From an uncultured Bacteriovoracaceae bacterium (GTDB lineage Bacteria > Bdellovibrionota > UBA1018), in the NCBI GenBank assembly GCA_964367865.1, contig CAYJBA010000001.1, positions 1,461 through 27,335 of the forward strand: a stretch of 25,875 nt of DNA. Direction: 5' to 3'. The notes beneath the pieces were generated by a model. That model saw only the letters and a list, made by a program, of their open reading frames with translations, had not been told where the DNA came from and searched no databases. Both the position numbers and the translations under genes were made by a program. How positions within the stretch are numbered: the first letter of the stretch is position 1; every line of letters begins with the position of its first letter. Positions 74 through 10,698 of this stretch are shown one piece after another.

Positions 74-151
74 TGGCGGTGGGGGTGAGATTCGAACTCA
101 CGACCCCTTGCTCCCAAAGCAAGTGCGCTAGCCAGGCTGCGCTACACCCCG
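74..151 (-). tRNA. tRNA-Pro (anticodon UGG) with aberrant, poorly paired acceptor stem; possibly chimeric or non-functional
   Basis: Minus strand reads CGGGGTG-TA-GCGC-AGCCTGGCTA-GCGC-A-CTTGC-TTTGGGA-GCAAG-GGGTC-GTGAG-TTCGAAT-CTCAC-CCCCACC-G-CCA. D, anticodon and T arms pair perfectly, the anticodon is TGG and CCA is encoded. The acceptor stem pairs at only 4 of 7 positions. Confidence 0.9.
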
Positions 152-9350: not shown

Positions 9351-9764
9351 ATGCCGATTGCGTACTTATCTCGCCGTACAACCTTTTGCGCTTCGCATCG
9401 ACTCCATTCGGACTCACTTTCAGCGAGTGAAAATCTGAAAATATTTGGAAAGTGTAATTCTGCGAACGGGCATGGACATAATTACGAGCTCGAAGTCACA
9501 GTCCGAGGTGAGATTGATTCTAAATCCGGCATGATCATGAATCTCACTGAACTTAAGAGTGTCATTGAAAGCGCAATTTTGGCAGAAGTGGATCACAAGC
9601 ATATTAACCTCGACTGTCCGTCGTTTCGTGGAATCAATCCCACTGCTGAAAATATCGCTTTCGTATTTTGGAACCTCCTTTTACCCAAGCTTCCAAAAGG
9701 GGCCCTCTACGAAGTTCGTATTAGAGAAACAGAAAATAACGTCGCCTATTTTAGGGGCGAATAA
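9351..9764 (+). CDS. 6-pyruvoyl-tetrahydropterin synthase / QueD family protein with PTPS-II-type motif
   Basis: FCASHRL, FGKCNSANGHGHNY (C-X5-HGH), PTAENIA, RETENNVAYFRGE. Confidence 0.93.
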   Translation: MPIAYLSRRTTFCASHRLHSDSLSASENLKIFGKCNSANGHGHNYELEVTVRGEIDSKSGMIMNLTELKSVIESAILAEVDHKHINLDCPSFRGINPTAENIAFVFWNLLLPKLPKGALYEVRIRETENNVAYFRGE

Positions 9765-9895
9765 TGGGCGCCGCTTTAGGGCTCCTGATCAAAATCGGCG
9801 TAGCGATGTATTTTTTTGTAATTGTGGTTTCGTTTCTGACGGGTATCGTTCGCGGCCACGATCAAAAACCTAAGAAGAAACCACGGTCCAGGTAG
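9764..9895 (+). CDS. 43-aa single-pass membrane microprotein MGAALGLLIKIGVAMYFFVIVVSFLTGIVRGHDQKPKKKPRSR
   Basis: ATG overlaps the PTPS stop (TAATG); one hydrophobic helix plus a basic tail. Below the ORF-track size cut-off. Confidence 0.65.
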   Translation: MGAALGLLIKIGVAMYFFVIVVSFLTGIVRGHDQKPKKKPRSR

Positions 9896-10015
9896 CTCTC
9901 TCATAGTTTCAAATAAACATTCTCTGAAGAACAAGCATCCTGCTTTTCCGCGCTTGTGTCGCATCCATGCGACGCGCGAATCTTCAGAGAATGTTCATTT
10001 GAAACTATGAGAGAG
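9896..10015. repeat. 120-bp element bounded by 35-bp inverted repeats
   Basis: 9896-9930 and 9981-10015 are complementary at 34 of 35 positions; the 50-nt core has internal hairpins. Confidence 0.95.
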
Positions 10016-10122
10016 GGAGCAGGCGAAGCAGGAGCTGCACCCTTAAAGAAGCTGGAACCAATTAGCACGGATAGAGAAATAGAGGTCCTGAGCTACAAGC
10101 TCCTACCCGGAGTGCGAACTTC

Positions 10123-10698
10123 TTACTCGATTTCATCACGACCATTGAGACGTTCGCGAGAAGCTTCAGCGGTTTGGACGCGCTCAACTTCCATACGAAT
10201 ATGAGCTTCGTCCTTGCGAATGAGCTTAGACATTGTTTTGCCTGACGCATCTAAAATGCTCACATTATTGTAAGCATCCAATTCCAGCCGATTTTTGAGG
10301 CGCATCCCTTCGGCATCTTGAATGCCACTACATACAGACGCTGTTCTGCAGTTTGCATCAGTGAGCAGTGAGGCCTGAGATGCGGAGTCCGATTTTTCAC
10401 GAACCACGGAGACCATTAAGAGTCCTCTTGCGCGATCTTTGTCACTCGAATAAATGATTTGAATTGAACCATCGTCCTGTACTTGCAAAACGGTTTCTTC
10501 GTTTACAAAAACGCCGGCAAAGGTTCCTACAGATACAGGGGGCTTTTGAATTTTAGATCCTTCGAGTCCAGGCTGTTTTCCAGGAACAAAATAACCTGGG
10601 GGATATTTCATTTGAGGTGCGCAAGCGATTACACCGGTCGCAACGGCCAATACCGTTAATGACGAAAAACTTAATTTCGATAAATTTTGGAACTTCAT
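10123..10698 (-). CDS. Hypothetical lipoprotein
   Basis: Signal peptide ending in lipobox VIA-C; GAGGG SD upstream. Confidence 0.8.
   Translation of the reverse strand: MKFQNLSKLSFSSLTVLAVATGVIACAPQMKYPPGYFVPGKQPGLEGSKIQKPPVSVGTFAGVFVNEETVLQVQDDGSIQIIYSSDKDRARGLLMVSVVREKSDSASQASLLTDANCRTASVCSGIQDAEGMRLKNRLELDAYNNVSILDASGKTMSKLIRKDEAHIRMEVERVQTAEASRERLNGRDEIE

Follow-up and report, generated by a model that had tools for sequence, protein, structure and literature searches.

A long hairpin between convergent genes of a groundwater Bdellovibrionota genome is probably a truncated member of a dispersed, non-coding foldback family

The window analyzed here is a stretch of 25,875 nucleotides (C1:1461-27335) of G000, the source groundwater MAG assigned to the Bdellovibrionota (2.72 Mb in 405 contigs, 83% complete, 46% G+C). 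An inverted-repeat search revealed in this window two arms of 35 nt that are 97% complementary, pairing at 34 of 35 positions around a spacer of 50 nt. As the earlier note had stated, the structure is placed between convergent genes, with a 6-pyruvoyl-tetrahydropterin synthase (PTPS) family gene and a 43-codon ORF on the plus strand facing a 191-aa ORF on the minus strand. The locus comprises the following features:

9351-9764, plus strand: upstream neighbour, PTPS gene (6-pyruvoyl-tetrahydropterin synthase family), from ORF and domain analysis
9764-9895, plus strand: 43-codon ORF, a putative gene, TAATG-coupled to the PTPS gene; its stop codon TAG abuts the left arm
9774-9787, plus strand: CTTTAGGGCTCCTG, candidate vestige of the left outer stem and of the start of the left frame, assigned with low confidence by by-eye comparison with the family consensus
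9896-9930, plus strand: left arm of the inner stem; only the core-proximal ~14 nt ACATTCTCTGAAGA and the distal CTCTCTC are not specific to this copy
9931-9980, plus strand: asymmetric conserved core with an apical three-way junction, from BLAST copies, covariance-model matches and covariation
9933-9945, plus strand: core helix H1, AAGCA-TCC-TGCTT, from sequence and fold
9949-9978, plus strand: core helix H2, made up of an outer stem CGCGC/GCGCG (9949-9953/9974-9978), a 4-nt bulge and an inner hairpin
9958-9973, plus strand: inner hairpin of H2, GTCGCA-TCCA-TGCGAC, from sequence and fold
9981-10015, plus strand: right arm, the reverse complement of the left arm at 34 of 35 positions
10011-10041, plus strand: right frame GAGAGGGAGCAGGCGAAGCAGGAGCTGCACC, a 31-nt asymmetric internal-loop block, which the copy on contig C64 has with 100% identity
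10039-10049, plus strand: start of the outer stem CCCTTAAAGAAG, as in full-length copies, read by eye
10123-10698, minus strand: convergent downstream ORF, 191 aa, no Pfam match, from ORF analysis

The 43-codon ORF would encode a hydrophobic part followed by a basic tail; it ends at the foot of the hairpin and contains the candidate left-frame vestige. The sole mismatch between the arms, A9915/C9996, becomes a G.U pair on the minus strand, and the predicted RNA fold of that strand runs unbroken across it (-77.4 kcal/mol, z -11.07). The fold predicted for the plus strand reaches -72.9 kcal/mol (z -10.05), and for neither strand was any of 200 shuffles as good. The repeat search and the folds agree with the arm pairing that the earlier note had read from the letters, and all three core helices named there are present (9933-9945, 9949-9953/9974-9978 and 9958-9973). 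The view that the hairpin is not a terminator was borne out as well: an intrinsic terminator is a short G+C-rich hairpin with a U tract behind it, the stem here is 35 bp long and no U tract or T run follows it, and no promoter-like or terminator-like site was found in 9600-10300 of the window. Nor does any direct repeat flank this copy or the other copies described below, in line with the reported absence of an obvious target-site duplication. As for the proposed 120-bp extent of the element, the hairpin itself was confirmed, but its boundaries were drawn too narrowly, since the conserved block 10011-10041 directly adjoins it and a possible vestige lies at 9774-9787.

Comparison of the 120 bases with G000 by BLAST yielded 22 copies, in which the matching part covered only positions ~25-95, i.e. 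the core and the innermost stem. A strict regular expression for the twin hairpins recovered only 8 copies, and a covariance model (R1) was used in its place; it gave 28 matches to the 48-nt two-hairpin core, indicating at least 28 copies in this genome. Among the 41 relatives, R1 matched 35 times in G018, 28 times in G000, 26 times in G019 and 8 times in G003, between one and three times in each of nine others, and not at all in the remaining 28 genomes. When the copies were excised with their flanks, each one proved to be a long hairpin with a stem sequence differing among copies and a symmetry that reaches 35-170 bp per arm. The full element is a near-palindrome of 280-400 bp composed, from tip to foot, of the 48-nt core, an inner stem, an asymmetric internal-loop frame, and an outer stem. 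In the core, two small hairpins each carry a conserved CATCC(N)TG loop, and the frame (left GGGCTCCTGCTAGCGGACGCGTCCCTCTC, right GAGAGGGAGCAGGCGAAGCAGGAGCTGCACC), which forms the asymmetric internal loop, is common to about nine copies and was never found without the core. In the window copy, the left frame proper TAGCGGACGCGTCC is missing; the candidate vestige CTTTAGGGCTCCTG (9774-9787) is separated from the window stem by ~105 unrelated bases and was recovered by neither MAFFT nor the MFE fold. To judge by its sequence, the window copy is a one-sidedly truncated member of the family that keeps the right frame only, like copy L095 of a relative.

An exact scan for the H2 hairpin in one genome per species (185,579 species) revealed multiple matches solely in genomes of the Bdellovibrionota/Oligoflexia (LJ_bin-4497, FG-1, a Bacteriovoracaceae MAG, GWB1_55_8, and R2F). 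Single matches in other taxa covered the 18-nt hairpin alone, not the whole core, and the same was true of matches in viral contigs. Another genus had the same architecture with compensatory changes in H1 and in the outer stem of H2. The covariation analysis that had been proposed as a check gave a strong signal: in an alignment (A1) of 34 cores from five genomes, the four core helices scored 0.495, as against 0.165 in shuffles (0 of 500 as high) and 0.07-0.15 with slid partners, and 158 cells were altered on both sides of a helix, with almost none altered on one side. No published description of this element family was found in the literature.

A palindrome scan of G000 with a minimum arm length of 22 bp returned 35 inverted repeats, 20 of which hold this core, and at least four more of them (on C5, C71, C102, and C208) carry a variant core whose architecture and CATCC(N)TG loops are unchanged, which suggests that the long palindromes of this genome largely belong to one element superfamily. 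Decayed copies (C318 and C299) and truncated copies also occur, and the young copies of FG-1 are 89-96% identical over 124-208 nt and contain no ORF. Other palindromes of G000 are devoid of this core: that at C23:4090-4278 is perfect, with 88-bp arms and a 13-nt loop, while those at C348:2732-2893 and C357:444-599 are related to each other (44-48-bp arms, 66-68-nt loops) and possibly represent another family. In FG-1 (L062:6190-6750; G019 C5:62190-63490), the DNA just downstream of one copy is a repeated unit of ~430-560 bp, which recurs in tandem on C5 and is also present on C22, C23, and C62.

Seventeen copies had callable neighbours, and the flanking ORF pairs were convergent in 10 cases, tandem in 6 and divergent in 1; convergent spacers make up 14% of the background under the same crude ORF calls (p=3e-5). 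The orientation of the core relative to the genes was mixed, with no orientation bias in tandem contexts. Orthologous sites in relatives, which the earlier note had suggested inspecting for empty sites, were indeed empty: in five other genera ligA is followed by no element, and the same holds for the four rlmN orthologues inspected, of which one has an ordinary G+C-rich hairpin and a T run in place of the element. Since these two sites are empty in other genera, the element at them was gained, not inherited. Together with the patchy distribution, the decayed copies on C318 and C299 and the young, near-identical copies of FG-1, the empty sites indicate a mobile, non-autonomous element, whose mobility itself is read from the patchy distribution and from orthologous sites empty in other genera only. 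Against mobility stands that no transposase, target-site duplication or, among G000 and its relatives, autonomous partner was found. On balance, we regard the hairpin as probably a truncated member of a dispersed, non-coding foldback family of Bdellovibrionota, non-autonomous, REPIN/MITE-like, and mobile.

By the usual criterion, a REP is an imperfect palindrome of 20-40 nt with a 5' GT[AG]G foot and arms conserved among copies, and a RAYT gene is usually present in a single copy flanked by REPs. The present family shares several properties with REPINs, i.e. REP doublets that form long hairpins and are associated with RAYT/TnpA-REP Y1-HUH transposases (Bertels & Rainey 2011, PMC3116915; Quentin et al. 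2018, PMC6006769): it is multi-copy, non-coding, non-autonomous, and extragenic, often located at gene 3' ends, and folds into a long hairpin from two complementary inverted arms around a short spacer. However, here the spacer (the tip) and the internal loop are conserved, not the arms, and no GTAG was seen by eye at the hairpin feet of the printed copies. With MITEs and foldback transposable elements it has in common the short, non-coding, dispersed inverted-repeat form, the young copies (as in FG-1) and the truncated ones. Unlike MITEs, most copies have no conserved terminal inverted repeats and differ at their outer ends, no target-site duplication or parent IS with matching ends was found, and the palindrome spans the whole length of the element, not its termini alone. 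The earlier proposal of a MITE or REP-like element thus holds in kind, the family being multi-copy, dispersed, non-coding, and placed at gene 3' ends with empty orthologous sites, but the defining tests of both MITEs and REP/REPINs failed. A likeness to plasmid or phage ssDNA signals was also considered and rejected, as BLAST gave no match.

A further likeness to REPINs is that G000 has Y1-HUH genes. Four divergent IS200/RAYT-like paralogs were identified (C108:4441-5031, C11:10156-10701, C90:2317-2871, and C241, minus strand), which encode proteins of ~180-196 aa with the HUH motif GNHxHLL, a C-terminal Y..N and 41-55% mutual identity, and which fall in protein clusters whose annotated members are mostly Bdellovibrionota. 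To judge by their sequences, these paralogs are too diverged for a recently active IS. In contrast to REPIN-RAYT systems, they are not flanked by the element, and no G000 protein reaches the RAYT model NF047646 (best 16.9 bits, cut-off 80). No core was found beside any of 13 Y1-HUH loci, and no recurrent CATCC(N)TG in the flanks of the 12 loci checked. The Y1-HUH family is present in 27 of the 41 relatives with up to 23 copies (19-23 in some), including 12 of the 13 element-positive genomes, while 15 Y1-positive genomes have no element, and its copy number does not track that of the element. The Y1-HUH genes are therefore a weak candidate for the mobilizing enzyme. When G000 (83% complete) and the 41 relatives were searched for a parent IS with matching ends, all core matches turned out to be non-coding elements, so the proposed search for transposases with matching ends came back empty, as did that for reverse transcriptase (RT) genes in G000.

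The arms proved to be informative in their own right. Summed over all copies in G000, their pairs comprise 1642 Watson-Crick, 20 G.T, 34 A.C, and 66 other pairs, many of the last within the frame loop, with no G.U excess on either strand. Each variable arm, when considered as a 'spacer' that might match other loci, matched its own partner only. Since the stems are almost purely Watson-Crick, with no G.U excess and no orientation preference, they point to pairing that is kept at the level of DNA, not as an RNA of one strand. Three copies of G018 (L050, L051, and L065) share homology that extends through at least 125 nt of each arm, and every one of them is internally complementary, which implies that the whole foldback of ~300 bp is the copied unit. 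The stems of L050 and L051 are ~20-25% diverged and the arms within each copy still match, while the cores differ at ~7% of positions, all in loops. Furthermore, the sister copies L064 and L089 have nearly the same stems, but with respect to the two frames the core is flipped.

According to three published reports (PMC8604942, PMC5941160, PMC8794818), template switching homogenizes the arms of inverted repeats and inverts their spacers. Because arm homogenization and spacer inversion are the signatures published there, we infer by analogy that replication template switching, or an equivalent gene conversion from arm to arm, acts on the arms of this family. Quasipalindrome correction by template-switch mutation, as presented in these reports, would account for the perfect arms, for compensated double changes without G.U intermediates, for the inversion of the core (the spacer), and for the outward palindrome growth described below. 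However, it is a mutational process and not an element family, and it leaves the dispersal and the conserved asymmetric core and frame unexplained. The copies on C155 and C64 have identical cores and frames and an unrelated middle stem segment of 16-19 bp; simple drift is insufficient here, and recombination between copies is the simplest patch, or else another process is needed. In a contig from Hainich well H51, L119, the frame and core common to both copies connect the flank of the C64 copy with the C155 flank; this chimera stems either from copies that recombined in the population or from misassembly, the coverage being 2-3x.

In several copies the arms extend over host genes. In the C94 copy, the final 13 codons of ligA, including the conserved EAEFLKLIS, lie within the left arm, and the encoded LigA aligns with Escherichia coli LigA (2owo) up to its last residues (EAEFLKLIS vs EAEMLRLLG). 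LigA orthologues of five other genera end one to few residues past this motif in four cases and about nine residues past it in G027. As the orthologues mostly end near the motif, the far arm of the C94 copy contains ancestral ligA coding sequence in inverted form, and ligA has acquired a tail of 7 residues. In the copy at C115:5580-5976 (L002), a BNR-repeat gene and rlmN, convergent to each other, both stop inside the two arms, and they end with the same TACTAA and similar 7-residue tails (CETCATY* and SETRAAY*). In GWB1_55_8, the element follows a gene for tRNA-Pro(CGG), and its far arm contains, at the mirror position, an inverted copy of a 3' part of this tRNA, its T-arm. Finally, a variant superfamily copy with 45-bp arms and a degenerate core lies left of the window start (C1:1278-1450), directly before a scaffold gap of 10 N (C1:1451-1460), and has a sequence resembling a tRNA 3' half, GGTTCGAATCTTGCCACCCCGCCCA, in both arms. 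The presence in the arms of inverted host pieces (ligA, the BNR gene and rlmN, tRNA-Pro, and the tRNA-like piece) suggests that the palindromes of this family grow outward by copying one flank onto the opposite side, a growth that can overwrite the ends of essential genes (ligA and rlmN) and of tRNA genes. The variant at C1:1278-1450 is situated ~90 nt downstream of the tRNA-Pro of the window (77-151), whose acceptor 3' strand had been flagged as anomalous in the earlier note. The region of this tRNA may have been disturbed by palindrome copying, or the scaffold join may be wrong.

The strong bias to gene 3' ends and convergent gene pairs would also fit an element that serves the host as RNA, namely as a two-way transcription stop, a 3'-end stabilizer or an RNase III site for convergent genes. 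The intergenic region of the window has no other terminator-like site, a perfect Watson-Crick stem folds equally well in transcripts of either strand, and the asymmetric frames and core loops are conserved across genera, so that selection could be acting for the host, which speaks against a selfish reading. However, the stems, at 35-170 bp, are much longer than termination requires and are followed by no U tract, the ligA and rlmN sites of other genera have no element, the distribution is patchy, decayed and truncated copies exist, and there is no enrichment of G.U pairs. At the gathering score, Rfam models matched only the tRNA at 77-151 of the window and nothing for the hairpin, CsrB/Rsm included; the search by Infernal that had been recommended thus provided no family assignment, the sub-threshold matches of the hairpin being to miRNA-precursor models (38 bits vs 83). 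We therefore hold a host-serving RNA to be a possible but rather unlikely explanation of the family.

A more specific RNA role would involve CsrA, a global RNA regulator. Read on the antisense strand, the core hairpins present GGA in their loops (CA(N)GGAUG) and might act as a CsrA sponge or as a 3'-UTR tag. The antisense H2 loop is CA(N)GGAUG in 33 of the 34 aligned cores and the H1 loop contains GGA in 22 of 34, csrA is present in G000 and in 38 of the 41 relatives, and the frames carry further CAGGAG/CAGGATG motifs. The SELEX consensus of CsrA is RUACARGGAUGU with GGA in a hairpin loop, and its dimer bridges sites 10-63 nt apart (PMC7652899), a range that includes the distance of ~27 nt between the loop centres in the core sequence. 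On the other hand, H1 loses GGA (TCG loop) in a third of the copies and each core offers only two sites, CsrA is universal in the order whereas the element is patchy, the element lies in mixed orientations with respect to the genes, its stems exceed favoured CsrA sites in stability (PMC7652899), and the Rfam models of CsrB/Rsm families gave no match. The link to CsrA is thus one of motif resemblance only, and we consider such a role improbable.

It is hardly credible that the hairpin arose as a chance fold-back duplication or during assembly. G000 is, to be sure, fragmented (405 contigs), it contains adapter remnants and N runs, and several copies are found at contig ends. Illumina adapter remnants occur at the end of C385 (AGATCGGAAGAGCACACGT) and of C241 (GTGACTGGAGTTCAGAC-like), N runs occur in C229 and C175, one or other of these artefacts also affects C299:1932-1941, and several contigs break within element copies. 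However, the window copy is embedded in a 27-kb contig and has unique genes to either side of it, and two further assemblies of this groundwater population (Hainich wells H41 and H51), 99.9-100% identical to G000, include several other copies with unchanged palindromes. The window copy itself was found in Logan contigs from four runs of two studies as overlapping pieces (left flank, arm and core; core, right arm and frame; right flank). Moreover, other genera carry the family as well, among them that of the record 'Bdellovibrionota bacterium FG-1', a record without a MAG label. The earlier note would have taken a single, unconserved copy as a sign of such an origin; the element is clearly multi-copy with a conserved core, and we conclude that the window hairpin is not an assembly artefact. 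The variation among the Hainich assemblies (99.9-100% identity, 2-4x coverage) is too small to reveal co-changes of arms or core flips, and the Logan contigs, which drop rare variants, contained no inversion or empty-site joints.

The retron-like reading, in which the hairpin would be a template RNA for an RT closed by inverted repeats, is practically negligible: it draws on the general shape of long closing inverted repeats around a structured core, but ORF and domain analysis agrees with the earlier note that the window has no RT gene, no match to RVT_1 (PF00078) was found in G000 (83% complete), the presence of 28 dispersed copies that differ in their stems is at odds with a retron, and Rfam gave no match for it.

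Returning to the reading as a mobile foldback family, we propose that the element is selfish and non-autonomous and would spread as a whole foldback by means of an enzyme acting in trans. The mobile form would probably be a single-stranded hairpin recognized at its core and frame. After insertion, template switching or gene conversion from arm to arm would keep the arms identical while they drift, and the same copying process would occasionally flip the core and extend the palindrome outward over the neighbouring DNA. Between convergent genes, the host may tolerate the element and perhaps even make use of it as a hairpin that marks RNA 3' ends in both directions. A bolder version, which we put forward only tentatively, is that the conserved tip is an active module, recognized at its two hairpins with CATCC/GGATG loops by a Y1-HUH protein of the Bdellovibrionota type (as ssDNA) or by CsrA (as antisense RNA), and that it nucleates fold-back replication, from which a perfect palindrome extends over any adjoining DNA, which would make the element a self-extending palindromic mobile element of a kind undescribed so far. 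If this were true, its growth would give the two convergent neighbours new C-terminal tails and stop codons and would copy pieces of tRNA genes.

The features that are new are the conserved tip and internal-loop frame, the copy-specific Watson-Crick stems, the flip of the core, and the capture of host gene ends. Small palindromic repeats such as REPs, REPINs, and MITEs are defined by conserved arms; in the family described here this logic is reversed, as conservation lies in the tip and the internal loop, and the arms can vary provided that they still pair. The family represents a natural, many-copy record of arm homogenization, spacer inversion, and palindrome growth, three processes for which most of the evidence has otherwise come from reporter assays and from statistical work on short inverted repeats. 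If a dedicated protein recognizes the tip, the family would constitute a new class of hairpin-shaped mobile DNA in predatory bacteria and would offer a candidate tool for hairpin-specific recognition of DNA or RNA.
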